NCBI GenBank assembly: GCA_963921275.4
Contig: OZ001293.3
Span: 5,312,001-5,376,000, forward strand
Direction of reading: 5' to 3'
DNA from: an uncultured Hormoscilla sp.
Lineage (GTDB): Bacteria > Cyanobacteriota > Cyanobacteriia > Cyanobacteriales > Desertifilaceae
DNA length: 64,000 nucleotides
Shown: positions 17,010-53,716 of the stretch, piece by piece
How the letters are laid out: every line of letters starts with the position of its first letter
Numbering within the stretch: the stretch's first letter is position 1
Translations under genes and position numbers: made by a program
Notes under the pieces: generated by a model
The model's input: only the letters and a program-made list of their open reading frames with translations
Databases searched by the model: none
Told to the model about the DNA's origin: nothing

Positions 17010-18724
17010 TCAGTTCGGGTCCAGCTGGGCCAGCCAAATAGCTGTATCCGCCCCTTCTTCAGGCGATCGGGTAGCCCCCGCACCACCCATCTCCGTCCGC
17101 ACCCAGCCCGGAGACATGGCATAAACCGCAATGCCTTGCGATCGCAGGGTATCTGCTAACATGATAGTCGCGCCATTGAGCGCAAGTTTGGACAAACCAT
17201 AAGCTGCTGGTACGCTAGCAGACAAGGTGTTCAACTGACCGTATTCGCTGGAAACATTAATAATGCGAGCTGCGGGAGCTTTTGCAAGTAGGGGGAGAAA
17301 AGCTTGGGTAACACTTATGGCACCAAAAGCATTAATATGCAGTGCGACTCGTTTCGGCCTAACCTGTACAAACACGGAAAAGCCGAGCCAAAATTGGACT
17401 GAATGTTTAGAACCAAAACTAATCATAATCAGGCTCAATATGGTAACTCTGGTCATCATGGGGGTTAAATTCCCTCTCCCCAGGTGTGGGGGTGACACCG
17501 GTCCTTAGTGCTGCGGAGTGACATCACCGTGGTGCGGAGCAAGGACTTAAATGTAGGATAGCTGACAGCCCAAAGTCGGCAACTCCGCTAGGAAAGATGC
17601 TCATGGTTAGGAAAACGAATCTGTGAAAGCCTCGTTATGTGTAACCAGCGGAAGAAGGCTTACACGCTGGCCTAAAAAGGAAATGGTAGCTAGTGTTGGC
17701 TGTTGCATATGGCCAACATCACACTCAAAGTAGCTCCCGGGGTAAAGCAGGGACCTAAAAACATCGTGAAATGATACCAGGGAACGAAGTAACTCCACGT
17801 GTGCTGTCCATAACTACTCGACTATCGACCGGTGGTCAGGAGATAGGGACCAGTTAGATGATAAGCGTAAGCCATGTGGAGAGAGATGGCCCAAGAAGCA
17901 AAGGACAGGGGTAACTCCTTGTATAAGTGGTGCAGGAATGTACCGGCAGACGTGGGTCGGATATAGTTGGAAATCTTGGGTGGAAGTATCCCTAATACGT
18001 ACCAAAAATCAGGAGAAATCCTAGATTGTAATATGGACTAAAACTCTAGCCGGGTAAAACTTGAAAAGTCCCCTAATGACGAGACAGGGGCAATGTTAGC
18101 AAAGAGCGGTATAAGTGGTTTCCTGGATACCCCCCGCGAACCTTCCGGAGCTAGATACGAAACAGTCCTATCGACTACCATAAAGGGGAAAAACTGCATA
18201 AGAAGAGGGACAAAGGGAGCAATCCCCAGTAATCCTGCCAATGACAAGGTCCAACTAACCAGTAGCCGTGTGCGATGAAAACCGCATGCACGGTTCGAAA
18301 GGGAGGGTTGGGAAGCGATTCCCAGCTCTACCCCTAATTCGTCAGATCCAACAGATCGCGAGAAATGTTGAGCCGGTTGAGTCCCCCATCGGGTAAAATG
18401 CCAGCATTATTGATCAGCACATCCAGGCGATCGCATTCCCGATCGCGTAGCGTGGCGCAGCCATGTTAAAGCCTGTGCGGCGCGGGAAATACTTCGATCG
18501 TCAGTAACATCAAGTTGCATCGCGGCAATGCGCGATCCTGGGGCTTTTAACTGCGCCGCTCTTTGCCCTTGGCGTTCGCGTAGCGTGCGCGCAGCGCATG
18601 CGATCTGGCTGCTATAATCACGTCAAAGCCGACATATAGTAATCCTTTACAAATAGCAAAACCGATGCCTTTATTGCCACCTGTAACTAGAGCTGTTTTT
18701 CCCTTAAATTGTGCATTCATCATC
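17010..18724 (-). pseudogene. Short-chain dehydrogenase/reductase interrupted by an antisense group II intron, two short-repeat insertions and a frameshift
   Basis: TGGNKGIG, LDVLINNAG, YGLSK, SPGWVRTEMG; removing 17342-18338 joins LT-A|TG-HINAFG. Confidence 0.9.
17342..18338 (+). ncRNA. ORF-less group II intron (997 nt), antisense to the SDR gene
   Basis: GTGCGA start; DV AGCCGTGTGCGATGAAAACCGCATGCACGGTT; DVI ending CTACCCCTAAT; loop TGCATA complementary to 5' flank TATGCA; host gene rejoins exactly. Confidence 0.93.
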
Positions 18725-18796
18725 AATCTCCTGATTTTCAAAGCGATCGCCTCCCGGTATACGGTGGTGATGGTTCTGCCAGTCCCACCGGATAAT

Positions 18797-19267
18797 TTAC
18801 TTTTTCTGCTTCGGCATTTTTGATTCTATAATATGCTCGGCTCCCTTCATAGCCTCCTTAGGAAATGACAAGTTAATCGTAATAGTGGACGTAGTAGCGA
18901 TCCGCAAATAGTAGTGACTGGAACTTTCTCTTCTAACTATAACATTATTCCAGGGAATCATTGGATAAAGAAAAAAGAGTGCTAAAACAGACGCGAGAGA
19001 CAGGTATAACCCTCGATCGCAGGTACCAACTTCGATATCTGAATAGCTCATACAGTTAATATAACAACCACTCGAGGATGTTGATATTGATAGATTAGTC
19101 ATCTCTTGCTTTTTGGCTCTGTAATACAATGCTAGAAGCAACCAGCCGTTTAACATAGAAGATATAACTATTCCTAAGTAACTCACTATATAAATTAATG
19201 GATAATCATATAATGTCAAATTGCCTGGATTTGACAAATCGAAGGCAAGCAGCATTTCATTCTTCAT
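18797..19267 (-). CDS. Hypothetical membrane protein
   Basis: 156-aa low-GC ORF with two hydrophobic segments. Confidence 0.55.
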   Translation of the reverse strand: MKNEMLLAFDLSNPGNLTLYDYPLIYIVSYLGIVISSMLNGWLLLALYYRAKKQEMTNLSISTSSSGCYINCMSYSDIEVGTCDRGLYLSLASVLALFFLYPMIPWNNVIVRRESSSHYYLRIATTSTITINLSFPKEAMKGAEHIIESKMPKQKK

Positions 19268-19599
19268 CTTTTTTCACCGATTGCTATTTTGGGGACAAAT
19301 CAGATATTTTTAAGTTTCTCTCTCAGTGAAAGCTGTTCCGGGAACGATCGCGATCTCTCCTCCAGTAATTGGACTAGAAGCGATCTCTCCCATTATCATA
19401 CCATATCTACGATCGAACCCAATTATTTTCGGGTGCATCCCAGTTTTGCAATATAGCCCGCGCAGGCGGGCTTTGTATCTGTAGCCGGACCCTTTAGGGT
19501 ATGGCTGCGCCCCACATCGCGCAGCGTGGCGGCAGCCATGCGCAGCGCTATCGGGCTGTGCGGGGCGCACAGAAGGCAACGCAAATATGAGATGCACCC

Positions 19600-20643
19600 T
19601 TATTTTCTGGGGTTATCAATCAGTTTCAGCGACCCTCCAAAGGCAAAATCCTGCACCATCGAACTCTTGAGGAAATCATGGGGAAATCCTAATTCGATCG
19701 CACTGACTTCATCCAAGCGCTGCATTTGTTCTGGAGTTAACTCGAACTCCAAGCAGGCAATATTTTCCTCTACCTGCTTGACCTTGCGAGATCCGATAAT
19801 CGGAATAATTCCGCCCTTTTGCCGCAACCAGTTCAATGCTACTTGGGAAGGTGCGCGTCCGATCTCTGCTGCTATCTTAACTACTTCTGCCGCAATTGTC
19901 AAGTCCCGATCGCTCACGTGCATTTGCTCAAAATCATCTGCTCGATTCGACTCTGAAGCAGCAGTTTTTTGACTGCTTTTATTGTATTTCCCCGTCAAAA
20001 CCCCACCGCCTAGAGGACTCCAAGCGGTCACGCCAATTTCAAAGGCACTTGCCATGGGTAACAAGTCTCGTTCCGGAGTACGTTCTCGCAAGGAATATTC
20101 AATTTGCAAGCCGATAAAAGATGTCCAACCTCGCAGACTGGCGATCGTATTTGCTTGGGAAATAATCCAAGCAGGAGTATCGGAAATGCCGATATAAAGC
20201 ACCTTACCGGCGCGGACTAAATCGTCAAACGATCGCATGACTTCTTCTACGGGGGTGGTAAAATCCCAGGCGTGTAACCACAGCAAGTCGATATAGTCTA
20301 CTTGCAGGCGTTTCAAGCTAGCTTCCACTGCTTGTACCATATTTTTGCGATGGTTACCGCCAGCATTCATTTCCCCATTGCCTGTATTGAGACTGTATTT
20401 GGTGGCCACAACCCATTTAGCGCGATCGGCGGCAATAAAGTCCCCCACATATTTTTCGCTCGTACCATTAGTATAAAGGTTAGCGGTATCGAGAAAATTA
20501 CCGCCCGCTTCAGCAAAAGCATCAAATACTTTGCGACTTTCCTCATAGTCAGAACCCCAACCCCAGTCTTCTCCAAAGGTCATCGTCCCGAGACAGAGTT
20601 CTGATACGCGCAGTCCGCTTTTCCCCAATAATTTGTAATGCAT
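19600..20643 (-). CDS. Aldo/keto reductase
   Basis: MHYKLLGKSGLRVSELCLGTMTFG, DTANLY, SLKRLQVDYIDL. Confidence 0.95.
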   Translation of the reverse strand: MHYKLLGKSGLRVSELCLGTMTFGEDWGWGSDYEESRKVFDAFAEAGGNFLDTANLYTNGTSEKYVGDFIAADRAKWVVATKYSLNTGNGEMNAGGNHRKNMVQAVEASLKRLQVDYIDLLWLHAWDFTTPVEEVMRSFDDLVRAGKVLYIGISDTPAWIISQANTIASLRGWTSFIGLQIEYSLRERTPERDLLPMASAFEIGVTAWSPLGGGVLTGKYNKSSQKTAASESNRADDFEQMHVSDRDLTIAAEVVKIAAEIGRAPSQVALNWLRQKGGIIPIIGSRKVKQVEENIACLEFELTPEQMQRLDEVSAIELGFPHDFLKSSMVQDFAFGGSLKLIDNPRK

Positions 20644-20669
20644 TGTTGTTTTTACTCCTGAATATGGTA

Positions 20670-20703
20670 AGTTGCCAGTTGTCAGTTGCCAGTTGTCAGT
20701 GGT
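20670..20703. repeat. Heptamer short tandem repeat (CAGTTGT/CAGTTGC)
   Basis: GTTGCCAGTTGTCAGTTGCCAGTTGTCAGT. Confidence 0.7.
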
Positions 20704-20757
20704 AAATTGCGAAGTGAGTATTCCTATTATCCCATCATTGTGCAACGCCAAAAAAGA

Positions 20758-22935
20758 TTATACAGATAAATTTTCCCGAGAAAAAGGTACAGCAGCATTC
20801 ACCAAACCCAACAAGGGACCAGTTTGGTACTGTCCGTTCGTTGCCAGATCGCTGTGACAAAGATACAGGCGATCGTCCACTCGGGCCAGCAAATCCTGCA
20901 AAATTCGCTGCAACCGCTTTTCGTCCGCTTCGGTCTCGTCTTCTGATATCCAAGGGCGTCCTAATCTATCTTGGAGAAACAAAGGCGCAGCAAATAAGGT
21001 AGCCGCACCGCCCTTGAGCCAGAGGGGCGAACTAGCATCGATCCAAAAATGCCATTGATGGCGGCGACGAGTCGATCGATACTGGAAGATATTGGTGAGA
21101 GTCACAGCACGACTTTGGGGGCCGATCGGACGCACGGGGAAAGGATTAGCAGTCACAGTCCCCTGACGCAGCAGCTGAATAAATCTGCCCACAATCTGAT
21201 GATAACCGGGCCAGGTTTGTTCATACCATGAGTCCTTCATCCGGGCAGCAACTTCCCAGTAATGCTGGGCCGTTTCCATCAATTCCCGAATGGCTGCTAC
21301 TTGATCGTAGGGGAGGTTGCTACCTTTCCACAAAAATTGCTGAATGGCTCGATCGAGAAAGACGATCGGACTGGGAACCAGGCGACCTAAAAGCTGCTGC
21401 TGTTGGATCTCAATCCATTTTAAAATCTGATTATAGGTCTGGGTGGCTCGATGTCCTAATCTGTCCCAGCGGGGAAAGGAGTCAACTGGTAATAACCGGG
21501 GACGATCGGGATCGGGAGCATAGCAATAGTCTGCCAGTAAACCGGCTCGTACTGGGTCAATTCTGGTCATGGCCAGCAGAGATGGATGGGAATCAGCGAG
21601 CGGTTCTTGACTGAGGACCACCAGCATTTCCGCCACGGCATCTCGGTCTACCAGCCGTCCCCATCCCGGATAAACTAGAGCCAGGAGGGTGAGTAAGGCC
21701 CGAATCAGGGGTGAAGCAGTCAGGGGTCGCTGATCGTTGAGCAATTCTATGGCAATTCCGGCTTTGGTGAGGATCTCGGTCAGGGTATAGCGGGCGATCG
21801 CGTCCACACCTGGTAGAATCACGGCAATTTCCTCTGGCGGCACCTGGTCCTGCTGTACTCCGTGAATAATCGCCTCGGCAGTCTGCCGCAACAGCTGCGC
21901 TCGGGATATAGTTTGAATGGACTGTACGGTCACGGCAGGCAAGACCACGGCGGGTGCAAACCCTCCACCCACTAACTCCATGCACCCAGCACTCAATTGA
22001 GGTGCCAAACCGCTGACAGGTTCCAATGCCAGGTTTTCCACTTGACAGCGCGAGGCCAGATCCTTCATATATAGGGGGTCGGCACCTAAACCCAGTCGGA
22101 TTCCCCCAGTCGGATTATAAGTAAAGACCCCTACCGCCCCCCGTAAGAGCAGGAATTCAAATAACATGCGAGCGATCGCGGGATACTCGTCCACATTATC
22201 TGCCAGCAGCAAACGGTAGCGGTTAGTTAAATACTGCTGATAAGTGCGATCGGGCAATAGGTGACGCCAATAGAGTTCCGAAACGATCCCGTAGGTGAGG
22301 AAACCCCGAGAAAGGCACCAACTGCGCCAGCGCAGGAGCAACTCTCCCATAGATTGCCAGAGTCCTGGGGTCCCGGGGAAATCCACCAATCCCTGTTCTA
22401 GAACGATCGGAATATCCTCAATGGGCGTCCCACTCACGGCGGCCAGGGAAAACAAGTCCAGAGTGCGGCGCACCATACGATACTCGCTCACCCCTTCCAT
22501 CCGCAGGACTCCCGAGTCCAACTCCTGACGCCATAGCTGGGTCGCCAATTCCTGCTCGGTTTCCGGGCGCAGGCGCACCGCAAATTGAGCCTTCAGTTGC
22601 AGGCGATCGATTAACAAAGGCCAGAATAACTGCACTTGCTCCAGAAAAAACCCCAGAGGAGTCTTGGCATGAACTGGATACCGTCCCTCTGTTACCTGCA
22701 CCATGCGATCGGCCAAATCGATCCGGTTATCTCCAATGGCCGCCAACGCCAACACCGCCGTTAACTGGGACTGTTGCTGCCAGGATGCCAGCAACAGGCG
22801 CAACTTCTCCACCAGGCGAGTTGTCTTGCCACTGCGGCTATAGCCAGTAATCCAAACAGAACCAGTAGACACGTTCGCGTAGCGTGCGCGCAGCGCATTC
22901 GTCCCCGTCGCTAATTTTTTGCTATTATTATCCAT
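20758..22935 (-). CDS. Conserved cyanobacterial protein with degenerate UvrD-like helicase motifs
   Basis: WITGYSRSGKTT P-loop, ADNVDEY, EEIAVI; divergent from pcxA. Confidence 0.7.
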   Translation of the reverse strand: MDNNSKKLATGTNALRARYANVSTGSVWITGYSRSGKTTRLVEKLRLLLASWQQQSQLTAVLALAAIGDNRIDLADRMVQVTEGRYPVHAKTPLGFFLEQVQLFWPLLIDRLQLKAQFAVRLRPETEQELATQLWRQELDSGVLRMEGVSEYRMVRRTLDLFSLAAVSGTPIEDIPIVLEQGLVDFPGTPGLWQSMGELLLRWRSWCLSRGFLTYGIVSELYWRHLLPDRTYQQYLTNRYRLLLADNVDEYPAIARMLFEFLLLRGAVGVFTYNPTGGIRLGLGADPLYMKDLASRCQVENLALEPVSGLAPQLSAGCMELVGGGFAPAVVLPAVTVQSIQTISRAQLLRQTAEAIIHGVQQDQVPPEEIAVILPGVDAIARYTLTEILTKAGIAIELLNDQRPLTASPLIRALLTLLALVYPGWGRLVDRDAVAEMLVVLSQEPLADSHPSLLAMTRIDPVRAGLLADYCYAPDPDRPRLLPVDSFPRWDRLGHRATQTYNQILKWIEIQQQQLLGRLVPSPIVFLDRAIQQFLWKGSNLPYDQVAAIRELMETAQHYWEVAARMKDSWYEQTWPGYHQIVGRFIQLLRQGTVTANPFPVRPIGPQSRAVTLTNIFQYRSTRRRHQWHFWIDASSPLWLKGGAATLFAAPLFLQDRLGRPWISEDETEADEKRLQRILQDLLARVDDRLYLCHSDLATNGQYQTGPLLGLVNAAVPFSRENLSV

Positions 22936-22987
22936 TGTAATCTCAAGTTATACGACCAGATAGCAATTCGCCCCCTTCAATTTTCTC

Positions 22988-24349
22988 ATGACAACCTTCA
23001 ATTTTACCAAGACGATCGCGTCGGGCTTTCGCGCCGCCAATCAGTGGTTATGGCTTACCCCGGATCGATCCCTTGATGAGGCTTATGAGGCAGCATTAAA
23101 AATCAAAGCCCTGGAAGACGAGCATTTTAATGGTGACAAGATATCTCCTGACTTAAGCGGTAACAGCCTGATGATTGCTAATTATTGTCGCCGCGAACTC
23201 AACAACAACTTAATTGCTGCGAAAATCCGCCTAGGGGAATTCAAAATCAGTAGTAATTTGATCGATCTTTTCTCTCCGAAAAATATTTTGGCCGAGAAGG
23301 AACCGGGTAACCGGACTGTAATCCTCAGAGAAAAATCAGCCATCACCCTAGAAAAGTTAAAATTAATTGATGAAGTCCTAGTCCGGTACAGTCGCGCCAA
23401 AAAGCTAGTCAAGTCCAGGAGTCGGGAATCTCAAACTTTCGTCCCAGTTGAGAATGGATCCGCCCAGAAAGCGCTAATCGAAAAGCAGTCCTTAAATAAT
23501 CAGTCAAAATCGCCTCCTAGCTTAGAGAAAATTGCCGGTGCTGAAACAATTTCTGCCCAAGGAAGTTTCTTGCCCCGGTCGATTTTGGGAACTTTGAAAA
23601 GAGTTCAAAAAGAATTAGATCCGAAAACGGAAGAAGAAGTTGTTGAAAAATTTATAGTTTCTAAATTCAAGACAGTCATTTCCCTGCGATTTATTTTATT
23701 GGCAATTCTGATCCCTCTTTTGACCCAACAGATATGTCATAATTTTCTGGTGGGACCAGTTGTAGATAGATTCAAAGAACAGGAAAGTTTTGCCACATTT
23801 ATTAACGAGGAAATGGAAGAAGAAGCTTTCATGGACTTGGAAAAGTTTGAGAAAAAAATCAAATTTGAAATTTTAACTGGAAAGTTGCCTGAATTATCAA
23901 AGTCGGAGATAGAAGCAGAGTTACAACACAAGGTTGAGGAAATTGAAGTAGAATATCGCGATCGCAGTGCGAATGCGATCAAAAACATTTTCTCGGATAT
24001 ATTCTCGTTTGTGGCATTCGGGTTAGTCATCTGGACAAGCAAGCGAGAGATAACAGTGTTGAAGTCTTTCATGGACGATCTGATATATGGATTAAGTGAT
24101 AGTGCCAAAGCTTTTATCATTATCTTATTTACAGATATGTTTGTGGGTTTCCACTCGGCCCATGGTTGGGAAGTAATTCTGGAAGGAATATCCAGACATT
24201 TGGGACTGCCAGAAAGTCGGAACTTTATCTTTTTGTTTATTGCCACCTTTCCCGTAATTTTGGATACCATCTTTAAGTATTGGATTTTCCGATATCTCAA
24301 CCGCATATCTCCTTCGGCGGTCGCTACCTACAAGGAGATGAATGAGTAA
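22988..24349 (+). CDS. pcxA: Proton extrusion protein PcxA (CemA family)
   Basis: YGLSDSAKAFIIILFTDMFVGFHSAHGWE, ATFPVILDTIFKYWIFRYLNRISPS. Confidence 0.96.
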   Translation: MTTFNFTKTIASGFRAANQWLWLTPDRSLDEAYEAALKIKALEDEHFNGDKISPDLSGNSLMIANYCRRELNNNLIAAKIRLGEFKISSNLIDLFSPKNILAEKEPGNRTVILREKSAITLEKLKLIDEVLVRYSRAKKLVKSRSRESQTFVPVENGSAQKALIEKQSLNNQSKSPPSLEKIAGAETISAQGSFLPRSILGTLKRVQKELDPKTEEEVVEKFIVSKFKTVISLRFILLAILIPLLTQQICHNFLVGPVVDRFKEQESFATFINEEMEEEAFMDLEKFEKKIKFEILTGKLPELSKSEIEAELQHKVEEIEVEYRDRSANAIKNIFSDIFSFVAFGLVIWTSKREITVLKSFMDDLIYGLSDSAKAFIIILFTDMFVGFHSAHGWEVILEGISRHLGLPESRNFIFLFIATFPVILDTIFKYWIFRYLNRISPSAVATYKEMNE

Positions 24350-24425
24350 TGGAAATTATCGTTCCCTGGCTCCGGAAACAGGCTGCGTTCTGCTTGATGC
24401 TACCCCCCTACCGCCTTCATAATTA

Positions 24426-26484
24426 CTATAGTTCCCACAACCGCATTACATCACCCCCAGATAACAGAAACTTACCATCGGGACTGAATGCTAGACTGTT
24501 CACAGAGAATGTAGGGTCCATCCAGTAGTCGCAGTTCACTGCCACTCGCCACATCCCACAACCGCACGGTTTGATCCGAACTCCCAGAGGCCACTGTCCT
24601 GCCATCGGGACTGAAGGCTACACTGTACACATAGGATGTATGTCCCTGAAGTAGTCGCAGTTTTCTGCCACTCGCCACATCCCACAACCGCACGGTATTA
24701 TCTTTACTCTCCTGTCTCTTCCAATCATATATCATAGAGGCAGAGGCCACTGTCCTGCCATCGGGACTGAAGGCTACACAGTTCACTGTTCCGGGAGTGC
24801 TAGGAAGTTGTCGAAGTAAACTGCCACTCGCCACATCCCACAACCGCAGGCCTTCTATACTCCCATAGGCCACTGTCTTGCCATCGGGACTGAAGGCTAC
24901 ACTGTTCCGATACGAAGAAACTGTAGGAGGCGCATAGTCAAATTTATAAAGTGTTCGCAGTTCTCTGCCACTCGCCACATCCCACAAATCCAGGAAACAC
25001 GAACTTCCAGAGGCGATCGTCCTGCCATCGGGACTGAATGCTACACTGGCCACAGCAGCGGCTTTCTGAAATTTTCGCAGTTCTCTGCCACTCGCCACAT
25101 TCCACAACCGCAGGCTTTCTATACTCCCAGAGGCCACTGTCCTGCCATCGAGACTGAAGGCTATACACCACACACAGCCTGTATGTCCCTGAAATTTTCG
25201 CAGAAACTTCCCTGTAGTTAAATCCCATAAGTAGATATCTGGGTTGTTTCCTAAAGCTAGCAGCTTACCATCAGCACTGACAGCGCCGCAGTAGGCAGGA
25301 GGACAGTCTATCTCCCACAGCGTCTCGCCACTACTGAGATCGAACAATGCTGCGCCACCCGTAGCACAGACTACTACTAACTCATCATTTAAAGAAATCA
25401 CATTTCTGATACTTCCGCGCCCCAGTCGCCGCACCATCCCCTGTGCTTTCAGTTCTGGCAAGACAAAATAGCCTCGCAATGTTCTTACATCTCCAGAGGA
25501 AGACACTCTCGGCGGTGGCGAAGGTATTGTTGGCGCAGGCGAAGGTCCAGACTTCCCAGACACCGCATCACCCCACCATTGCTCCACGCTGCTAGGGCGT
25601 TCTTCCTTCTCCAAAGGCAAAGCCTTTTCCACCAAACTCTGCCAGGGTTCTGCCAAAGAAGGTTCCCAGTTTGTCCCCATCATCCGACTCAATACTGGTT
25701 CCGGCAGCGTCCCCGCAATCATTTCATGCAGCATCATCCCCAGTTCAAAAATATCGCTTTCCGCCCCCACAGACTTTCTGGCAATTATTTCCGGTGGCGC
25801 ATAGGTCTCGGTAAACGCCCGCGTACTCTGAGTGCCAGTCATACCCGTCTCTTGCTTCGCCGCCCCGAAGTCTATCAAAACCACCCGTCCTGCCGGAGTC
25901 AGCAAGATATTGTCCGGCTTCAGGTCCAGATGATAGACTCCCGCTTGGTGAGCAATTTCTAAAGCATCCACCAGGGGTTCCATAATTTCCGCCACCCTTG
26001 TCGGGGGCAAAAGCTTGTCAGGTTGGGCGTCCAAGACTTGCCGCAGGGTCTCCCCGGCTATTAATTCCATCACCAGATAAGCAGTACCCCGTTCCGTGAA
26101 TAAATCTTGCACCCGTACCAAGCTAGGATGGTTGAGTCTGGCCAACATCCGCCCTTCCCGCTTGAACCGGTCTAACCAACCTTGGAATATATCAGCTTGG
26201 TTTTGGGGGACGATAAGGTTCCCTGTAGAAATGTGGCGATGGACAAGTTCTTGGGGGTAATATTCCTTAATAGCAACAGGTTGTTCTAAAATCAGGTGAC
26301 GGGCGCGGTAGGTGATGCCAAACCCACCCCGACCTAAAGCATACTCGATCTCATAAGTATCCTTGTCCAAGCCGGTGCCTGGGGAGAGTACGTCTCGCAG
26401 CAGGGTCGGCAAATGGATGTTGCATTCCGGGCAGTATTCGGCGTTGGACGGGATCTTATCTAGGTGGCAATTGAGACAACGCAT
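24426..26484 (-). CDS. Ser/Thr protein kinase with N-terminal Zn ribbon and WD40 repeats; frameshift near 24517 scrambles the last repeat
   Basis: LGRGGFG, VAIKE, HLDLKPDN, DFG; WD repeats; alternate frame gives PTFSVNSLAFSPDGKFLLSGGDVMRLWEL* ending 24426. Confidence 0.9.
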
Positions 26485-26631
26485 AGCTGTAGTGTAGGTT
26501 AGTAACCGGTTCTGTTCTTCACCATTATATTATATGGAGTCTTTTTCGACAACCCGCCTTCCCAGTCTCCCGGCAAGTGGTCAGAACTAGGTAATTTTTC
26601 CTAGCGGTACGAGTACTGCACCCTTTATACA

Positions 26632-26905
26632 TCGAAGCCGACTCTGGGCTTTCTCTTTAAATGGCCTTGATATAAATATTTTATCCGGTAATAACTTGCT
26701 CATTCTCGGGAGTGACTCAGTCATTCCCGGGAAAAATAAGTTATTTCCAGAACTAACTATTTATTTCCTGGAGTGACTGAGTCATTCCACTGAGTTTGAA
26801 AGTCATTCGGTGGGGGCAAAAGGTTACTCTTTGGTGGACGTAAGCACCGCTTTGGCAGGGGTAAGCACCTCTTTGGCGGGAGTAAGCGCCTTGGCAGGGG
26901 GAAAA
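26632..26905 (+). repeat. Dispersed non-coding element with internal 21-bp periodicity (homolog at 50335-50700, opposite strand)
   Basis: Shared blocks AGCCGACTC, TAAATGGCCTTG, AAATATTTTATCC, CGGGAGTGACTCAGTCATTCCCGGGAAAA, GTAAGCACC repeats. Confidence 0.8.
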
Positions 26906-27387
26906 TAGAGATTTAGATGCTGGCCAGGGTTTTCTCACGTTCTCCATCTAGCAAGATGCAACTGGCTACTTCATAATTGCAGGAGAATCAGAGGCAATTT
27001 CTCGTTTGCCTTCAATATGGTTGCTAATATATAAAGAATTGAACAGAAAAGTCGCTGCTGGATCTGAAATTCACAGGAATTTTAGGAGTATTGATTGAAG
27101 CCAAACTCTGCTTGATTTCGGCTGTGAAACCGGTTCTGGATGATTTAATTATCATAGCAGAATTCAGGGTGAGCGATCGGCTATACGATCGCGTCTTGCA
27201 AGCAGTAGGAGAGTAGCGATCGCCCTTTATCCTGAGAAGCGATCGTTATTATGCCACAGCGATCGCCTCTATCCCCAGTACCATCGGCCAAGATCGGAAA
27301 GATTAATAAAAATTAAAATAGTGAAAGACAAAACTTTAGATAAATTATCATTGTATATGTTAAGATAGAGTAAGCTAGGACTAACAG

Positions 27388-28341: not shown

Positions 28342-28472
28342 GCGATAACCATTAAATTCCCTGTGTCAAATAGCGATCGCCCTCACTTTTCTGGGATTTA
28401 AGGGATCGCGGCCTCGATTTTTCGCGCAGCGTTCGTAGGAGAAGGGGTGCGATCGCCAGTTCCCGGGGCAGA

Positions 28473-42531: not shown

Positions 42532-42607
42532 AATCGTTACAGTATATCTAACTACCGTTGATGTTTACCTAATTTTAACCAACAAAAGATTGGATCTACG
42601 GTTAGCG

Positions 42608-43443: not shown

Positions 43444-43451
43444 ACTGTCCC

Positions 43452-43670: not shown

Positions 43671-43921
43671 TTACCTCCAACACAAATATAACATAACACT
43701 GCAGCACCATCTCTATTCGGAATATATCCCATATCGCACCTGACGCTCTCTTATTTCATTATTATAGCGCGAATTGTTCTTACCTGAATTACTTGCACTA
43801 TTTTTTACCTACTTTGATCCAACCAAATACTTGCTCTGCCGTTAGCATCATATCAATAATTATGGGTCGATCTGGGTCTTGCTTATCGGTGCCACGCGCG
43901 CGACCCCAAAGCCACCCATGA

Positions 43922-44070
43922 GGTAGCGCTGCATAGGTTTTCCAGAAATCAGGATTTGTCAAGGACTTCATCTAGATGCTTCACAGGGTTAGCTGCAATA
44001 TCTGCTTCAGCTTTAGCGATTAGGTTATCCAATTGGAGATTCTCAACTGATATAATAACTTGTCAATCAG
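43922..44070 (-). pseudogene. Antitoxin C-terminus and toxin N-terminus fragment
   Basis: LDNLIAKAEADIAAN..HLDEVLDKS* overlapping MKSLTNPDFWKTYAALP. Confidence 0.55.
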
Positions 44071-44315
44071 CTCTCTTTGATTGGAACAAATTCGGTGCGA
44101 ATTCCCGAAATAATTCGTAATTGTCAATTGAGCAAATTAATTACTAATTGCCTCATTTTGATTGGGACTGACGAAGGCACAAACAGCAAAAAAATTTTCA
44201 ACTGTTTGGCCATTGTTTTCCCTCACTTTGACAGGGCTAGCAATGCCCACCCTACAGAAACTACAGAAACAATTATTGGTGGGCGATGCCCACCCTACTA
44301 ATTGAAGCCTATACT

Positions 44316-45554
<1,239 letters not shown>

Positions 45555-46061
45555 CTACCACCTGCCCTGAGTGGAGCCACATCACCCCAAGTCTTGGGGC
45601 CAATATGTGGATGCTTTTCCTTTCTCCGGGCAAGGCGCGATCGCGATCGCGCCATTCAGGCACAATTTTTCCATTGTACATGGCGGGGGACATAGTAGGT
45701 CGCAGATCGCCATCTCGGTGGAGATTTGGGGTAGTTTTGATCTCGTAGGCACCAGCAGCTGAGGTTCAGTCTAGGGGGTCTACCACGGTCAGACTGTTGC
45801 CGCCATCGTCAATTTTATCTTTTCTTCAAAACCAATTCGCCCTATTCTTGGTATAGATGTCGATCGCGTAGCGTGCGCGCAGCGCATTCGACTTGCCCGA
45901 CCGGATCTCCTTGTGCGGGGGATCGAGTTCTGGTAGAATTAACCTAAGCTCCTAGGACTAAATACTTAGTTCGAGCTTGGCCCGAGTCGGACTGTCCCCT
46001 GAGACGGACACAGATGAGATCATCCCCTGTCGGCCTCACGCTGGTGCGGGGCCGATTTTTC

Positions 46062-46103
46062 TGAGGTTTGTAGTGAGGACTTCCGTCCTCACTACAAACC
46101 TCA
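46062..46103. repeat. Long palindrome (REP-like hairpin) upstream of prk
   Basis: TGAGGTTTGTAGTGAGGAC TTCC GTCCTCACTACAAACCTCA. Confidence 0.8.
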
Positions 46104-46162
46104 GTAGAGCCCAATCCGCTCAAACATAAGTAAGCAAATCATCAGATCGAAAGAGGGAATCT

Positions 46163-47173
46163 ATGACAAAGCCCGATCGCGTGGTATTAATAGGTGTAGC
46201 CGGAGACTCCGGATGCGGTAAATCCACGTTCTTGCGTCGCATCACTGACTTGTTCGGAAAAGAATTAGTAACAGTCGTCTGCCTGGATGACTACCATTCT
46301 CTGGACCGGAAACAGCGTAAAGAGACTGGGATTACGGCCCTTGACCCCCGGGCCAACAACTTTGACCTGATGTATGAGCAAGCAAAAGCGCTCAAAAATG
46401 GTCAGACGATCAATAAGCCGATCTACAATCACGAAACGGGCATGATCGACCCGCCAGAGCGAATCACCCCGACCCCGATCGTGGTCCTAGAGGGGCTGCA
46501 CCCCTTGTATGACGAACGAGTTCGCGATCTTTTGGACTTCAGCGTTTACCTGGATATCGGCGACGAGGTAAAAATTGCCTGGAAAATCAAAAGAGATATG
46601 GCAGAACGGGGTCATAGTTATGAAGATGTGCTGTTTGCCATCAATGCCCGTCGCCCAGATTTTATGGCCTACATCGACCCGCAGAAAGCTCACGCCGATG
46701 TGGTCATTCAAATTCTGCCCACGGAGTTGATTAAAGAGGACAAAAAACATAAAATCCTGCGGGTACGCATGATTCAGCGCTACGGAGTAGAAGGTCGCGA
46801 TCCAGTATACCTGTTTGATGAAGGGTCAACGATCCACTGGATTCCCTGCGGTCGCAAGCTCACCTGTTCGTACCCTGGTATTAAAATGTACTACGGACCC
46901 GATAGCTATTACGGTCACGAAGTCTCCATCTTGGAAGTGGACGGTCAGTTCGACAATTTAGAGGAGATGATTTACATCGAAGGTCATCTGAGCAACACCT
47001 CCACTAAATACTACGGCGAATTGACCCATCTGGTGCGGGAGCATCAAGAGTATCCGGGTTCTAACAATGGTAGTGGACTGTTCCAAGTGCTCACGGGTCT
47101 GAAAATGCGGGCCAGCTTTGAATATCAGATGGCGCAGGAAGAAAAGGAAGAAAAGGTGCCTGTTAGCGTGTAA
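46163..47173 (+). CDS. prk: Phosphoribulokinase
   Basis: GDSGCGKSTF, LDDYHSLDR, PCGRKLTCSYPG. Confidence 0.98.
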   Translation: MTKPDRVVLIGVAGDSGCGKSTFLRRITDLFGKELVTVVCLDDYHSLDRKQRKETGITALDPRANNFDLMYEQAKALKNGQTINKPIYNHETGMIDPPERITPTPIVVLEGLHPLYDERVRDLLDFSVYLDIGDEVKIAWKIKRDMAERGHSYEDVLFAINARRPDFMAYIDPQKAHADVVIQILPTELIKEDKKHKILRVRMIQRYGVEGRDPVYLFDEGSTIHWIPCGRKLTCSYPGIKMYYGPDSYYGHEVSILEVDGQFDNLEEMIYIEGHLSNTSTKYYGELTHLVREHQEYPGSNNGSGLFQVLTGLKMRASFEYQMAQEEKEEKVPVSV

Positions 47174-47208
47174 AGCACTATCAGCTTTTGCCTGACAATC
47201 TTCACCAA

Positions 47209-47242
47209 GGGCGAGGGGCGGTACGCCTCTCGCGCTTTTTTT
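47209..47242 (+). terminator. Intrinsic terminator after prk
   Basis: GCGAGGGGCG-GTA-CGCCTCTCGC stem followed by a T7 run. Confidence 0.75.
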
Positions 47243-47354
47243 ATCTTTCTTGATCTCCCGAGGGTTGAGCAGGAGATTGCGCTTTGGCTATTTCATTCTC
47301 AAAATACGCTCTTAGGTATCTAGACCAAACTTACAGCAGCGTAATGAAATAGCC

Positions 47355-47545
47355 CTGGGGTCTCATAGTCCAAAGAACTGTTAGTTAGCAGTTGGTCCCC
47401 TACTATGGTGAAGGCGTTGTTGCCGGAGACTAACTGGTAAGTAAAGGGATCTCCCAGGTTGGGGTCGGCCCAAGCCTGCCAGAAAGTCCCCACGAATACG
47501 ACAATGCTGCTGTTACTGAGCTCTAGGTCGGTAGGAGAGGAGTGC
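47355..47545 (-). pseudogene. Degenerate extra cadherin-like repeat
   Basis: Matches 14431-14645 with deletions. Confidence 0.7.
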
Positions 47546-49078
47546 TCTGAAAATCGCTCACGTAAATCGTTTTAATCCCTTGCAGGGTGGCCAGGGTTTC
47601 CCCTTCAAAGTTAATCAAGGTATTTCGGCCCTGAGAGACGATCTGCAAATCGTCTCTACTCAAATCTCCTGCTAGCCCGATCAAGTCCGTACCCTGTTCA
47701 AAGTCTATGATAGTATCCCAGCCCATGCCCGACTCCAGGACAAAAAGATCGGCGCCCCCTCCTCCGTGGAGGGTATCGTTTCCATCTCCGCCGATGAGAG
47801 TGTCTTTCCCGTTGCCTCCGTAGAGGCGATCGCTTCCCTCTCCGCCGATGAGTCCGCCGATGAGGGTGTCCCCCTCTTTCCCAAAGAGTGATAAAGTTAG
47901 GGGTTGGGGGTTGAGGGTTAGGGGTTGACGAGTATTGCTGAAGTTACGGCTGGGAGGAGACTCGGGAACATCGTTGACGTTAACGGTAAAGGCCTCCGAG
48001 TAACTGGCCCCAGTAGCGTCAGTAGTCTGGACGCGGATGCTGTAACTCGATTTGGTCTCATAGTCCGGTGAACTGTTAATTAGCTGTTGGTCCCCTGCTA
48101 TGGGGAAGGCGGCGTTGTCTTCGGCGCTGGCGCTTGAGACAAACTGGTAGGTAATGCTATCTCCATTGTCGGAGTCGGTAATGGAGAAAGTCCCCGCGGC
48201 GCTATTGACTGCGGAGTTTTCATCAATGCTACTGTCAGAGAAGTTACGGCTGGGAAGAGACTCGGGAACATCGTTGACGTTAATCGTGAAAGCTTCCGAG
48301 TAACTGGCCCCAGTAGCGTCAGTAGTCTGGACGCGGATGCTGTAACTCGATTTGGTCTCATAGTCCGGTGAACTGTTAATTAGCAGTTGGTTCCCGGAAA
48401 TGGTGAAGGCGTCGTTATCATCGTCACCAACCCCTGAGACTAACTGGTAGGTAAAGGTATCTTCACTGTCAAGGTCGGTAGTGGAGAAGATCCCCACGAC
48501 GCTATTGACTGCGGAGTTTTCATCAATGCTGCTGCCAGAGAGTTCGAGGTCGGTAGGAGACTCGGGAACATCGTTGACGTTAACGGTAAAGGCCTCCGAG
48601 TAACTGGCCCCAATGCTAAGGGAGTTTCCATCCCGGGTGTCCGCCACTCCAACTTCCAATTTCCGCCCCGGGCTGCTGCCCCCGTCCGGGTAGTAGAGGC
48701 CGCGATGTCAGCCCTTAAAAGAGTCTGTAGCTTAGCCATCAACTCCTCTCCCGTATCTCCGGCGGCTACGTTACAGCCGTAGAGTAGGAGTTGTTTTACC
48801 TTCCACTTCTGCAGGGTAGAGGCGTAATTTCTTAGGGTATCTAAACTCAGTTGGGAGTTCCCCAGATACAGACAGCCAGGGCTGCCGTGGGAGAGTAGGT
48901 GCAGAACCTCTGTTTCTCGATGCTGTCGGAGAAGTTCGCCGATCTGTTCGATGCCATCGGACTGAGGGTCTAAGAGGAAGGGTTTGGCCCCAGGCCGGAT
49001 GCTGTCTATTAGCTGCCGGTAGTTTTCTAAGGAGGCATCTACTATTACTATGGTGTTGGTAAAGGATTTATGCTTCAT
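47523..49078 (-). pseudogene. Paralog of 12687-16243 lacking the LRR and Ig region (DUF4347 fused out of frame to cadherin repeats and RTX tail)
   Basis: Highly similar DUF4347; junction GAAACTCCCTTAGCATTG|GGGCCAGTTACTC near 48610. Confidence 0.85.
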
Positions 49079-49341
49079 TTTTTGGTTCCTCTCGCATTTT
49101 TGGGCCGAGGTGCTAATACCAGGCCTACTATTAGTATACATCATACTTCTGCTAATAACGAGTGCGGTCCGGAATTTTTTGAGCAATTTTCGACTCTGGT
49201 CGGTGGGTGTGGTTAAAACTCGTTGGTAGGAGGCCTCCCCAGCCCGAACTTTAAAGGGTCCGGCTACATGTATATAGCCCGCCTGCGCCGGCTATATACA
49301 TGTATCATCGATGCACCCCCAGCCCGAACCTTAAAGGGTCC

Positions 49342-50212
49342 GTGCGATTCGTTCTAGCCTAACGTGATCAAACACGGAACGCTAGCCCGGTTTCATTAGC
49401 CGGGAACTCTGACCGCATGGGGGTTAAATTCCCCTCCCCCCAGGTACGGGGGTGACACCGGTCCTCGGTGCTACGAAGCGACATCATCGTGGTGCTAAGC
49501 GAGGACTCAAATGTAGGATAACTGGCAGCCTAAGCCGGTGACGCCGCTAGGAAAGATATCCAAGGTTAGAGCAGGCAAACATGTGCAAGCCTCGTTATAA
49601 GGAACCAGCGAAATAAGGCTATATGCGCTGGCCTAAAAAGGAAATGGTAGCTAGTATTAGTTTTAGACTCTGGCTAATATAGTACTCAAATAGCTCCCGG
49701 GGTATAGTGTGGACCTAAAGGTATCGCGAAATGTTGTTAGGGAACGAAGTAACCTCTCGTGTGCTGTCCATCAGGACAAGTTAGATGTTAAGCGCAAGCC
49801 ACGGGGGGAGGGATGGCCCAAGAAGCGAATGCCCGGGGTAATTCCTGGGATAACATCTACAGTAATGTAGATGATGCTGGGTAGCCAGCGCTGACGTGGG
49901 TCGGTGATACTAGGAAGCTGCTGGAATGAGTAATCCTAAAAAGCCACGGAACTAATCCGAAACGCAAGTGGAGGATAAGGTATGGATAACTGGTAAAACT
50001 GACTTGAAAATGGTGATACTAACGGTTATCAGAACAACCACTCGCTAAACCAGGAAAGGGAAGAAAAGACAGGCGGCAAGGGCTAACGGAAGTAATTCCT
50101 ATTAAGTCTACCTATGAAAAGGGCCTAGTACCCAGTAGCCGGATGCGGTGAAAATCGCAAGTCCGGTTTCTCAAGGGAGGGTCGGGAAGCGATTCCCGGC
50201 TCGACCCCATCC
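49342..50212 (+). ncRNA. ORF-less group II intron (871 nt) inserted in a dispersed repeat
   Basis: GTGCGATTCG start; DV AGCCGGATGCGGTGAAAATCGCAAGTCCGGTT; DVI ending CGACCCCATCC; flanks rebuild AAAGGGTCC|GGCTACAT as in the empty copy at 49253-49269. Confidence 0.93.
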
Positions 50213-50334
50213 GGCTACATGAACAAAGCCCGCCTGCGCCGGCTATATACATGTATCATTGAGCCCTCCCCAGCCCGAACCCCCGGGGGGCTGGAGGGGC
50301 TCTTCTTGCCAACGGGCGTCAGACCACACTTCTG

Positions 50335-50700
50335 ATCTTACTCTGGCCTTGGAGGTGCTTACTCTGGCCTTGGAGGTGCTTACTCTGGCCTTGGAGGTGC
50401 TTACTCTGGCCTTGGAGTTACTCAACTGCCCTGAGGTGATCTTGGATCACGTCAAAGCAAAAGGTTGTGACGCCATGGAATGGCTTTCGTACTTGGTGGA
50501 ATGATTTAGTTATTCCTGGAAATGAACAGTTACTCCTAGAAATGAATGATTTTTCCCGGGAATGACTGAGTCACTCCCGGGAGTTCCGAAGTTATTCCAG
50601 GATAAAATATTTCTATTGTTAAGGGGCGCGAGCGTAGGCTGCGACCTTGGAGGCCAAGGCCATTTAGGGAGAAAGCATGGAGTCGGCTGAGATGTCTAAG
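50335..50700 (-). repeat. Second copy of the 21-bp-period element, including about 4 x CTTACTCTGGCCTTGGAGGTG
   Basis: Homology to 26632-26905; near-perfect tandem units 50337-50418. Confidence 0.8.
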
Positions 50701-51010
50701 GGGGGGCATTACTAATTCCTCTACTCCTATGTCACTCATCGCGGGCCTCCTGTTAAAACAATTATCACCGGGTGCATTCATCCCCAGCCACTTTCTCATT
50801 ATACTGTATCCTTGACAATCTGGTAATCAAGATTACCATCACTTGTGGCGAGATTTATTGCGATCGCGAGACAGTTTTACCGCATCTGGTCTTCTCCGGG
50901 CAGGCGAGACTCATGCCCTGATCGGCGTTCTACGTGCGATCGGCGAGGTTTTCTCAACCCCGGTGAGTAATACAAGCTATAAGGGCGATCGCCCATGCCT
51001 ATAAATCATG

Positions 51011-51619
51011 TTAACTCAAATTCTGCGTACAAGCTTGGAAAAGAAAGCGAAGTAATCCTAAGACAGTTCCCATTTCCCCGACAGCATGGGGGAGAGTTTG
51101 ATAAACATTACCATCAACAGTCAGTTGATAAAACTTCCAGGTATCTCCGTTGGTAACAATACCCAAGACATCAATTTCTTTACCTATCTGTTTATTTTCC
51201 CAATGACAGGCTTGCATTTCCACTAAACATTGGGCTAAACCTTGCTCGAAATCATCCTTTTTTGCCTCGATAATACACAAATATGGGGCTTCTAAATAAG
51301 CTTTTCTTGCCGCCACAAGGTAATCAACATTGCCATTGGTTTCGTCAGTTTCCAGACTTGCACCTTTCCATATCTTTAAGGTATTAAATTCCTGAATAGC
51401 CTCTTCACAGATAGCGTCGATTACAAGTTTTCTCGACTCTTCATAACTCTGCAAGTCAAAGCATTGTAGTCGTTCTAGGCGTTGCCGAAAGAAATCACTG
51501 ATGGGAACCGGTTCGACCTCAAGATTCCAGAGCAATAATTCAGTTATATTAAGTTGCTTGAATGCTTCTTTATAATTAAAGTTGGAAAAGTTTTTTTTCT
51601 TCTTTTTTGCCGGTTTCAT
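51011..51619 (-). CDS. Hypothetical PD-(D/E)XK (restriction-endonuclease-like) protein
   Basis: GNVDYLV, IIEAKKDDFEQGLAQCLVEM, GIVTNGDTWKF. Confidence 0.75.
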   Translation of the reverse strand: MKPAKKKKKNFSNFNYKEAFKQLNITELLLWNLEVEPVPISDFFRQRLERLQCFDLQSYEESRKLVIDAICEEAIQEFNTLKIWKGASLETDETNGNVDYLVAARKAYLEAPYLCIIEAKKDDFEQGLAQCLVEMQACHWENKQIGKEIDVLGIVTNGDTWKFYQLTVDGNVYQTLPHAVGEMGTVLGLLRFLFQACTQNLS

Positions 51620-51672
51620 GATTGATATTGAATTAGTTACAAAGGTTAACGTGGGCGATGCCCACCCTAGGG

Positions 51673-52069
51673 TTATGGGATGAAGATCCTAGTTACACCC
51701 TTATAGTTTTCGATGTAAAGAACGATCTCCATCAGGCGATCGACACAGCGATCTCTATAGCTTGCTTCATACAGCAGGCGATCTGCATTTCCAATTGTCA
51801 ACACGGGCAAAGAGGTAGGAGTATTTTCTTCGCGCAGCACTTGTTCTAATGAATCTTCTTCTTTACTGCTGCGATTTGCTGTCAGCAGAATCATCTAATT
51901 TGATTGGGCAAATCGCCACACTATGCGAGCGTTACTTTCAATTGGCAATTTTATCTGTGCGAAAGTGATAAAACTAATTTGTTCCCCAATTGAGCCAACC
52001 TTGCTTAACAATGATTCCATAGATCATCACAGCATGTCTCTCAATATTATGATCGACGAGAAAGTTCAT
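51673..52069 (-). pseudogene. DUF5615/PIN-like toxin with a frameshift and a stop
   Basis: MNFLVDHNIE... / ...IVWRFAQSN*MILLTANR; ATGA overlap with the DUF433 gene. Confidence 0.75.
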
Positions 52070-53716
52070 AGCTGTCCGTTAATTTTTGCTAAAGTTCGGG
52101 CTTTTTGCGCTTGTAGCTTTTCCCAAGCAGCCTCTTTACCAGGTGGTGGCGGCATCTTGGCAATTTTGGCTATGAGATCGCGATTGCGTTCTTCCCAATA
52201 CTGCCTGATTTCCTCAGCGTACTTCAAGACCATCTCATACTCAGCCTCCACTTCCTCGCGATTATTCTCAATGTATGACAAAGCTACGTTGATTTCGGAT
52301 GGGGTCGAGCCGGGAATCGCTTCCCGACCCTCCCTTGAGGAACCGGACTTGCGATTTTCACCGCATCCGGCTACTGGGTACTAGGCCCTTTTCATAGGTA
52401 GACTTAATAGGAATTACTTCCGTTAGCCCTTGCCGCCTGTCTTTTCTTCCCTTTCCTGGTTTAGCGAGTGGTTGTTCTGATAACCGTTAGTATCACCATT
52501 TTCAAGTCAGTTTTACCAGTTATCCATACCTTATCCTCCACTTGCGTTTCGGATTAGTTCCGTGGCTTTTTAGGATTACTCATTCCAGCAGCTTCCTAGT
52601 ATCACCGACCCACGTCAGCGCTGGCTACCCAGCATCATCTACATTACTGTAGATGTTATCCCAGGAATTACCCCGGGCATTCGCTTCTTGGGCCATCCCT
52701 CCCCCCGTGGCTTGCGCTTAACATCTAACTTGTCCTGATGGACAGCACACGAGAGGTTACTTCGTTCCCTAACAACATTTCGCGATACCTTTAGGTCCAC
52801 ACTATACCCCGGGAGCTATTTGAGTACTATATTAGCCAGAGTCTAAAACTAATACTAGCTACCATTTCCTTTTTAGGCCAGCGCATATAGCCTTATTTCG
52901 CTGGTTCCTTATAACGAGGCTTGCACATGTTTGCCTGCTCTAACCTTGGATATCTTTCCTAGCGGCGTCACCGGCTTAGGCTGCCAGTTATCCTACATTT
53001 GAGTCCTCGCTTAGCACCACGATGATGTCGCTTCGTAGCACCGAGGACCGGTGTCACCCCCGTACCTGGGGGGAGGGGAATTTAACCCCCATGCGGTCAG
53101 AGTTCCCGGCTAATGAAACCGGGCTAGCGTTCCGTGTTTGACCACGTTAGGCTAGAACGAATCGCACAGACTCTGTCAGGTTGAGAAGATTGCGAATAAA
53201 CTTGGGTGAATATTCTGCTTTCACGTAGTCCATCACGTCGTAGAGGGTTATGCGCTTGCCGTTGATCGAGAGTCCTCTTTCCGTGCGGACGATCGCCGCT
53301 GGTTTGGCATCATGCATGTTTATTTTATTGTGAGCCTTCAGCCCTTGCAGCCTTTTCCAAGCCGCCTCTTGACCAGGTGGTGGCGGCATCTTGGCAATTT
53401 TTACTAAGAAATTGCGATCGCGTTTTTCCCAATTCTGCCTAATTTCCTCAGCCTCCTTCCATAGCATCTCATACTCAGCCTCGACGGCCTCACGATTATC
53501 CTCAATGTATGACAAAGCCGCGTTCATTTCCGACTCTGTCAGCCAGAGAAGATCGATAATCATCTGGGGTGAATAATCATCTTTCAAGTAGTCCATCACG
53601 TCGTACAGGGTAATGCCCTTACCTGCGATCGTGAGTCCTATTTCCGTGCGGACGATCGCCGCCTGCTGGGAATCATTCATGTCTGTCATTTCCTGCAATT
53701 TTCTCTCTTTATCCAT
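52066..53716 (-). CDS. Tandem DUF433 antitoxin-like protein, two exons (53716-53168 and 52296-52066) split by a group II intron; 259 aa when spliced
   Basis: Two IVRTExGLxIxGKxITLYDVMDY units; exon join gives LTES|EINVALSYIE matching LTESEMNAALSYIE of the first unit. Confidence 0.88.
52297..53167 (-). ncRNA. ORF-less group II intron (871 nt), sense to the DUF433 gene; near-identical to 49342-50212
   Basis: Reverse complement of the other copy with two differences seen by eye; loop AGACTC complementary to exon end GAGTCT. Confidence 0.94.

Follow-up and report, generated by a model that had tools for sequence, protein, structure and literature searches.

A high-copy lineage of protein-less group IIB introns in a Hormoscilla genome and its probable reliance on the maturase of a sister lineage

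The group II introns considered here lie in a 64,000-nt stretch of the genome of an uncultured cyanobacterium, Hormoscilla sp. (contig OZ001293.3, positions 5,312,001 to 5,376,000; referred to as the window), and belong to a lineage, lineage A, that is present in about 390 copies. Lineage A is of subgroup IIB, encodes no protein, and probably splices and retrohomes with a reverse transcriptase (RT)/maturase borrowed from a sister lineage whose members bear an open reading frame (ORF), lineage B. The basis of this reading is the ribozyme anatomy, the guide sequences, the precision of insertion, the recency of two family bursts, and 11 candidate helpers. A first-pass annotation of the window had staked a similar proposal on covariation between exon-binding sequences (EBS) and flanks, an intact group II RT in the genome, and a six-domain fold, and each of these is borne out: the covariation holds across 304 copies, the genome has 11 introns with an intact RT outside the window, and compensatory changes preserve the domain helices.

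By the mechanism proposed, the lineage-B protein would bind lineage-A RNA and promote its splicing, the lineage-A lariat would reverse-splice into DNA sites picked by its EBS loops, and target-primed reverse transcription would copy the inserted RNA. Loose EBS1 pairing (mean 4.8/6) would offer each family hundreds of usable sites, altered EBS loops would open new sets of sites, and relaxed pairing together with guide change would avoid site saturation. The small, compact A RNAs would out-compete their own helpers, and sense copies in single-copy core genes would persist by splicing out.

Abundance, ribozyme anatomy and guides of lineage A

The genome (7.03 Mb, 96.7% complete, 47% GC in its main contig C1) contains 4738 copies of the HIP1 octamer, a cyanobacterial mark. 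With a census profile built from 36 Rfam matches, 484 domain V/VI matches were found, every one on C1; 370 are of the type seen in the window (A), 85 of a second type (B), and 29 of others, 18 of which are A variants. Lineage A has 386 starts and 388 ends, of which 342 are paired, 328 of them at less than 1100 nt net, and A and B sequence together amounts to 528 kb, or 7.5% of the genome. Clustered at 95% identity, the 304 uninterrupted A copies form 44 families, including F0 (871 nt, the twin introns of the window; 138 copies or more), F1 (835 nt, 70 copies) and F4 (997 nt, 8 copies), and the ten largest families share 63-85% identity with one another. The recent mobility proposed in the first-pass annotation agrees with the finding that 61 of 123 equal-length F0 copies are identical (mean divergence 0.12%) and that, with nested and in-B sites excluded, 242 of 247 copies have distinct flanks, with duplications of 3 nt at most. 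Twenty-eight copies are nested, and F0 enters F0 near intron position 768. Three F0 copies also stand head to tail, and the loci C1:5447656-5450268 and C1:5180205-5181946 hold this array or F0-in-F0 nesting. A rolling-circle origin of such arrays was considered and set aside: there are just three junctions, and re-homing at an intact 5′ exon would be simpler. One further contig of the assembly (31 kb) has 17.6% GC vs 47% in the genome and may come from another organism.

Lineage A was found in all four congeners, with 1, 31, 22 and 50 hits of its domain V pattern; three of these assemblies are fragmented. The congener with one hit also has only 3 RT matches, against 22-50 hits and 8-79 RT matches in the other three, and its assembly is in 230 contigs, so that collapse of repeats is possible. 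Among 36 other relatives nothing was found beyond short domain V-region matches, and the pattern is absent from 400 other genomes of the phylum, a set that may not include Trichodesmium. A scan of the species collection gave at least 25 loci, all in Hormoscilla among the matches listed.

Lineage A starts with the GUGYG boundary of group II introns and has the domain V triad and a bulged A in domain VI, its three members in the window matching RF00029 above the cut-off. The triad is AGC in 39 of 44 family representatives, the other five being misaligned or gapped. When helices defined from one member were scored over the 44 families, those of domains I to VI proved 78-100% paired, with two-sided changes in the EBS1 stem, domains II and III, the base of domain IV, and domains V and VI; the fold z is -3.76. 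EBS1, EBS2, EBS3 and a δ nucleotide in the coordination loop, which is U in the aligned loops, place the lineage in subgroup IIB. The 5′ consensus of the IIB2 type, as given in the accessible part of PMC4649490, occurs in 326 of 386 starts and is the sole IIB2 mark scored.

The 3′ end is shifted. The presumed branch A is followed by four C's and then by four family-specific nucleotides, the latter being ATCC in 146, GACT in 108, GACC in 54, and TAAT in 42 of 370 ends. When flanks were joined for every candidate end, the genome was found to contain an exact empty copy of 28 nt for 65 of 316 sites, in each case with the intron ending at A+8, and none of the 316 had one at A+4 to A+7 or A+9 to A+11; a canonical AY end two nucleotides earlier was likewise rejected, as 0 of 316 sites have an empty copy at that offset. 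Reading frames stay open across the junction at offsets 5, 8 and 11 (52-54 of 296) vs 9-13 at other offsets. In the γ-γ′ pairing, AGA goes with U in 23 of 44 families and GGA with C in 18, with one wobble and two misaligned. From the empty sites, the open frames and this covariation between J2/3 and the terminal base, the branch A of lineage A is predicted at -9, one nucleotide further than in lineage B, whose 3′ end is the canonical one (A plus 7 nt, AAT or AAC); the usual distance from branch to end is 7-8 nt according to the accessible text of PMC1865049. The terminal dinucleotide is CC in 184, CU in 97, AU in 22, and UC in 1 of 304 copies (CC or CU in 281 of 304). Tools that rely on the consensus end will thus misplace the exon border.

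The EBS1 loop has nine nucleotides, namely N, the δ U, six guide nucleotides, and mostly U. Over 40 different hexamers, EBS1 pairs with its own flank at a mean of 4.69/6 vs 2.24 with permuted flanks (reached in 0 of 100000 permutations), a score lowered by a few small families with misplaced loops; by shifting the register by 1-2 nt the mean over copies falls from 4.79 to 1.5-2.4. EBS2, located in 301 of 304 copies, is a pentamer facing positions -13 to -9, with 3.77/5 over 36 pentamers vs 1.89 permuted (0 of 100000), and EBS3 forms a Watson-Crick pair with +1 in 239 of 293 copies and a wobble in 32. A further nucleotide two positions before EBS2, EBS2a, tracks position -14: of the 36 copies in which it is not U, 30 match there, compared with 14 at -15 and 11 at -16. 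In the accessible part of PMC8643678, DNA integration, unlike splicing, is reported to require the pairing of EBS2a with its intron-binding partner IBS2a, a pairing that depends on or is stabilised by the RT. This pairing therefore points to movement into DNA as ribonucleoproteins, for which the EBS2a covariation is the best sequence evidence in these protein-less introns. Families F2 and F5 have each been retargeted, two EBS sets being present on nearly the same backbone, and all 22 fixed differences in F2 lie within domain I. The first-pass annotation had proposed retargeted EBS loops from the window, where just two specificities occur and the twins share one set; the varied guides are found genome-wide. 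The 300 natural targets over 40 guide types also constitute a table of targeting rules, including EBS2a.

The candidate helper, host genes and rival explanations

None of the 44 family representatives of lineage A holds a long ORF, the longest stop-free frame being 58-136 aa. Of 93 RVT_1 matches in the genome, the best 76 were examined, and none of these 76 is carried by a lineage-A intron; two sit in B introns nested within A introns. Among 58 RT proteins longer than 250 aa, 55 cluster at 70% identity and represent lineage B, which has 85 ends and 11 complete introns of 2.37-2.42 kb with a YADD ORF of 588-596 aa, for example at C1:4097676-4100073, C1:5689045-5691459 and C1:6623488-6625877. 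Those B proteins tested have RT, maturase and HNH domains, and presumably belong to class CL2, to judge by the style of their sequence and by their IIB2-like RNA. Among solved structures, the T. elongatus maturase 6me0 is the closest to them (E 1.4e-113). An intact intron sharing the domain IV of lineage A, which the first-pass annotation had suggested looking for, was not found in the genome; the helper would thus be a diverged sister lineage, and lineage B is likely to fill this role. The partnership between A and B is inferred from sequence. The two ribozymes are homologous across domains I-III (E 1.4e-32), and a short motif before domain V appears to resemble the last codons of the B ORF; together these suggest that lineage A probably descended from an ORF-bearing relative long ago. 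Global A-vs-B identity (63-69%) is too little above that of shuffled sequences to be usable. Remnants of an ORF were sought in the A family representatives by tblastn with RT proteins; the best 15 matches were all read-through artefacts from inserted A copies, with no remnant among them.

The relation with lineage B extends to its genes. F0 has entered the B ORF antisense again and again at the same places, with 15 insertions near B position 2010, upstream of HNH, that cut helpers down to about 480 aa. More generally, lineage A enters many B introns at shared reference positions (about 234, 1006 and 2010), often antisense in the RT gene, and repeated homing and co-transport would both account for this.

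The 308 outer sites comprise 78 sense and 36 antisense insertions in ORFs of at least 150 aa, 40 insertions in B introns, and 154 elsewhere. ORFs of this size cover 59% of the intron-free sequence and B introns 2.7%, so that genes are hit less often than their share and B introns more often; within the ORFs, sense insertions outnumber antisense ones (p 1.0e-4). The 76 sense-interrupted ORFs scanned include eno (C1:1799446-1801634), zwf, prfC (release factor 3), RecJ, glutamate synthase, and the B12-dependent ribonucleotide reductase. Among 12 that were checked by tblastn, no second copy was found for enolase, zwf, the reductase, RibD, QueG, RsmB and one GTPase, and release factor 3 and RecJ have just distant second matches (24-30% identity). 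Because single-copy core genes are interrupted in sense, the copies within them would probably have to be spliced out in vivo. In the RNA contigs of one public run (X2), a related intron is partly covered, with high depth; the strain is different and DNA carry-over is possible. The reductase gene (C1:848310-852697) carries, besides its lineage-A intron, a LAGLIDADG domain that is probably an intein.

Several observations weigh against splicing and mobilization of lineage A with the protein of lineage B. High-identity blocks between A and B are short (42-84 nt at 75-91%), their domains IV show no clear homology apart from the short motif that precedes domain V in 28 of the 44 families, and their likeness is far under the 85-100% of the T. 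elongatus system. The domain V bulge is non-standard in many copies (AA in 168 and UC in 18 of 296), and the lineage lacks the 3′ AY at 7-8 nt from the branch A that is expected of group II introns, although the AY end is a consensus rather than a strict requirement: RmInt1, an accepted member, ends in CC, and γ-γ′ is kept in A. Where EBS2a is U, A stands at -14 in just 143 of 265 copies. Sense sites do not have a better EBS1 match than antisense sites (4.85 vs 4.97, p 0.74), a poly-A raw-read RNA run (X11) has no reads on the enolase locus and so is uninformative on splicing, and the copies inside one family are not independent of one another.

The retrohoming could be the same and the helper another, either a cognate ORF-bearing A intron that is unassembled or lately lost, or a divergent RT. 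The divergence of the A and B ribozymes, the incompleteness of the genome (96.7%), and the three RTs outside the B cluster would all leave room for this. One of these RTs is free-standing (265 aa, YMDD, locus L143:1709-2506, minus strand); it is 21% identical to B proteins, has no domain V downstream, and adjoins a phage-tail-like gene pair. Another belongs to a third intron type (L014:203-1990, minus strand) with a full ORF of 595 aa, a YADG active site, and 44% identity to B. However, the three are YADG, interrupted, or short and under the maturase cut-off, and the bursts took place too recently to have used a helper lost long ago. Nor was an ORF-bearing A intron seen in this genome or, among copies readable whole, at the 25 congener loci listed; 12 congener loci with variant domain V copies, considered as possible parents, are all ORF-less, and a YADD frame upstream in locus L109 belongs to a separate B intron. 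Another helper is therefore rather unlikely.

Still less likely is that lineage A splices by itself or with host factors and uses an RT just for rare copying, most copies being splicing-poor and their hosts decaying pseudogenes of a symbiont. The 36 tolerated antisense insertions in long ORFs are consistent with this, as are a host gene in the window that is also broken by a second repeat, the non-standard bulges and 3′ end, and the poor splicing reported for RmInt1 with its CC end in the accessible part of PMC4238363. On the other hand, the interrupted eno, zwf and prfC are single-copy with otherwise intact frames, and γ-γ′ covaries in 41 of 44 families. Enolase is generally essential. Spread at the DNA level (transposition as of miniature inverted-repeat elements, gene conversion, or carriage as passengers), or an assembly artefact of copy number, has very little likelihood. 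Recombination between copies does occur, as 21 of 137 F0 copies carry the domain V-VI linker of another family, and B introns contain 43 of 320 copies, in part at positions in common, but the flanks follow the RNA guides of each family, a covariation that largely refutes movement as DNA, and there are no duplications or terminal repeats. As for the assembly, in two other public runs the F0 intron forms a separate contig far deeper than its flanks (depth not being equal to copy number), ending in both at the same 3′ base, with a different flank in one run; this speaks against an artefact, as does the presence of the lineage in congeners.

Mobilization of lineage A by the protein of lineage B thus remains the preferred explanation. 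A broader view, which is plausible but which we would stop a little short of calling probable, is that lineage A represents an ancient and obligately protein-less class with its own 3′ geometry, a parasite of its sister introns comparable to short interspersed elements, which has reached hundreds of copies in a host-restricted cyanobacterium, has entered essential genes, and has made the cell dependent on a shared trans splicing apparatus. If so, it would be an extant parallel, in bacteria, to the stage of intron invasion from which spliceosomal introns are proposed to have arisen, and the antisense insertions into the helper gene would hold the system as a whole in check. Hundreds of mostly protein-less introns, partly in core genes, offer a natural test of proliferation, ORF loss and a shared splicing factor. 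Gene callers will also split such core genes, which bears on claims of "missing genes" in symbionts of this kind.

The three introns of the window

The window contains three protein-free introns at the ends given in the first-pass annotation (Table 1), which start with GTGCG at 17342 (+), 49342 (+) and 53167 (-) and have RF00029 domain V/VI matches of 43.0, 45.4 and 44.4 bits, respectively, above the gathering score. Introns 2 and 3, the twins, differ at 2 of 871 nucleotides, and their family is 69% identical to that of intron 1. The Rfam matches of the twins stop at 50210 and 52299, two nucleotides inside the true ends; because the two terminal C's belong to the intron, the first-pass end at 50212 is correct and the Rfam end at 50210 is short.

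All the EBS1 pairings that had been proposed were reproduced: TGCATA of intron 1 pairs at 6/6 positions with its flank TATGCA, and AGACTC of the twins pairs at 6/6 with GAGTCT at the DUF433 site and with four Watson-Crick pairs and one wobble with GGGTCC at the repeat site. For EBS2 of the twins, the pairing with the CCTTA stretch at the repeat site stands, but the proposed heptamer TATAAGG is better defined as the pentamer TAAGG facing -13 to -9, which pairs at 5/5 there and at 4/5 at the DUF433 site. The flank of intron 1 at EBS2, TGTGT, gives two pairs and two wobbles. Insertion without duplication, as claimed earlier, agrees with gap-free empty-site copies for site 2 (95-97%) and site 3 (82%), and at site 1 its support is the restored host frame only.

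Intron 1 lies antisense in a pseudogene for a short-chain dehydrogenase (SDR), with Pfam matches on both sides, which is also disrupted by an unrelated small repeat. Such small palindromic repeats, at window positions 674, 6398, 10036, 18450, 18587, 22886 and 45875, have two cores of 13-15 nt with 153 and 137 exact genome matches, and are inserted in genes, including the SDR host, and in loops of lineage-A introns. The site of intron 2 is an 80-nt intergenic repeat (49230-49341 + 50213-50300) with an 18-bp hairpin and 82 genome matches, a preferred F0 target in that 7 of the 82 carry an intron; a 21-nt tandem repeat lies a little 3′ of the intron, at 50337-50400. Intron 3 is inserted in sense and in phase 0 into a tandem DUF433-like ORF; it interrupts the second of two similar units, which form one 259-aa frame after intron removal (52066-53716, minus strand). 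The Pfam match to DUF433 is weak (E 3.4e-5) and lies on the upstream unit, the interrupted pieces being unmatched. A fourth intron of the window, a 757-nt lineage-B remnant that the first-pass annotation does not list, lacks EBS1 and domains II-III and scores below the Rfam gathering threshold; genome-wide, six lineage-B ends have a start less than 1300 nt upstream.

Table 1. Positions of the introns, their pairing elements and their hosts in the window
Feature	Position	Strand	Remark
Lineage-B intron remnant, internally deleted, 757 nt	1193..1949	+	5′ portion of domain I joined to the ORF end with HNH, then domains V and VI
IBS1 of intron 1	17336..17341	+	6/6 pairing with EBS1
Intron 1, ORF-less group IIB, lineage A family F4, 997 nt	17342..18338	+	ends AAT, γ A
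EBS2 of intron 1	17638..17642	+	
EBS1 of intron 1, 9-nt hairpin loop	17704..17709	+	δ U at 17703
IBS2 and IBS1 of intron 2	49329..49341	+	IBS2 49329-49333, IBS1 49336-49341
Intron 2, ORF-less group IIB, lineage A family F0, 871 nt	49342..50212	+	host is an intergenic palindromic repeat
EBS2a and EBS2 of intron 2	49596..49602	+	EBS2a 49596, EBS2 49598-49602
EBS1 of intron 2	49665..49670	+	
J2/3 linker GGA of intron 2	49811..49813	+	γ G, predicted partner terminal C50212
Domain V of intron 2	50137..50168	+	AGC triad, AA bulge
Domain VI of intron 2	50175..50212	+	presumed branch A 50204, then 8 nt to CC
3′ exon, DUF433-like host ORF	52066..52296	-	frame kept only with terminal CC counted as intron
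Intron 3, ORF-less group IIB, family F0	52297..53167	-	matches the commonest F0 sequence exactly
5′ exon, DUF433-like host ORF	53168..53716	-	IBS1 at 53168-53173

Comparison with known systems

No published report of this expansion was found in the literature searched, mostly open-access papers, and in two Hormoscilla genome papers (PMC6520454 and PMC7313196) the terms "intron" and "reverse transcriptase" are absent from the main text. The mechanism itself, trans mobilization with EBS divergence, has already been published for Thermosynechococcus elongatus. According to the accessible part of that report (PMC2882425), its TeI3/TeI4 introns of subgroup IIB1 number 28 and occupy 1.3% of the genome, ORF-less copies outnumber RT-bearing ones, families are defined by EBS1, EBS2 and EBS3, introns nest within introns, and "driver" proteins act in trans by assay, as is proposed here from sequence. 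Here, however, about 470 A and B domain V ends occupy 7.5% of the genome, 114 of 308 sites are in long ORFs whereas few TeI introns lie in genes, and the 5′ end of lineage A fits IIB2. TeI3 introns are deletion forms without the ORF that keep 85-100% identity to TeI4; in lineage A, the families are only 63-85% identical, EBS1 occurs in 40 types or more, and no member with an ORF was found. Lineage A shares with TeI3 the lack of an intron ORF and the many copies at EBS-complementary sites, but has just a diverged sister lineage in place of a close ORF-bearing parent in the genome, and so appears to work like TeI3 without being a deletion derivative of that type.

Other systems resemble lineage A in single features. 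Trichodesmium erythraeum has 17 introns spliced in vivo, ten of them without an ORF; as in lineage A, such ORF-less introns lie in protein genes of a cyanobacterium, and their IIB2 5′ consensus GUGCGAUUC fits lineage A, although they number tens rather than hundreds and no recent burst is described in the accessible text (PMC4649490). Arthrospira platensis, another filamentous cyanobacterium with an expansion of the CL type, has 101 introns, the maximum in a survey of 1,790 bacterial genomes as far as its accessible part reports (PMC8919778), against 484 domain V/VI matches here, an approximate ratio since the methods differ. RmInt1 of Sinorhizobium meliloti combines a CC 3′ end with γ-γ′ pairing, unlike all other group II introns according to the accessible part of PMC4238363, and lineage A shares both features; RmInt1 is, however, a single ORF-bearing intron of class D/IIB3, whereas CC or CU ends are the rule throughout lineage A. 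Compared with the print found, what is new in Hormoscilla is the copy number, a diverged lineage without an ORF-bearing member, a 3′ end shifted family-wide, and the load on core genes.

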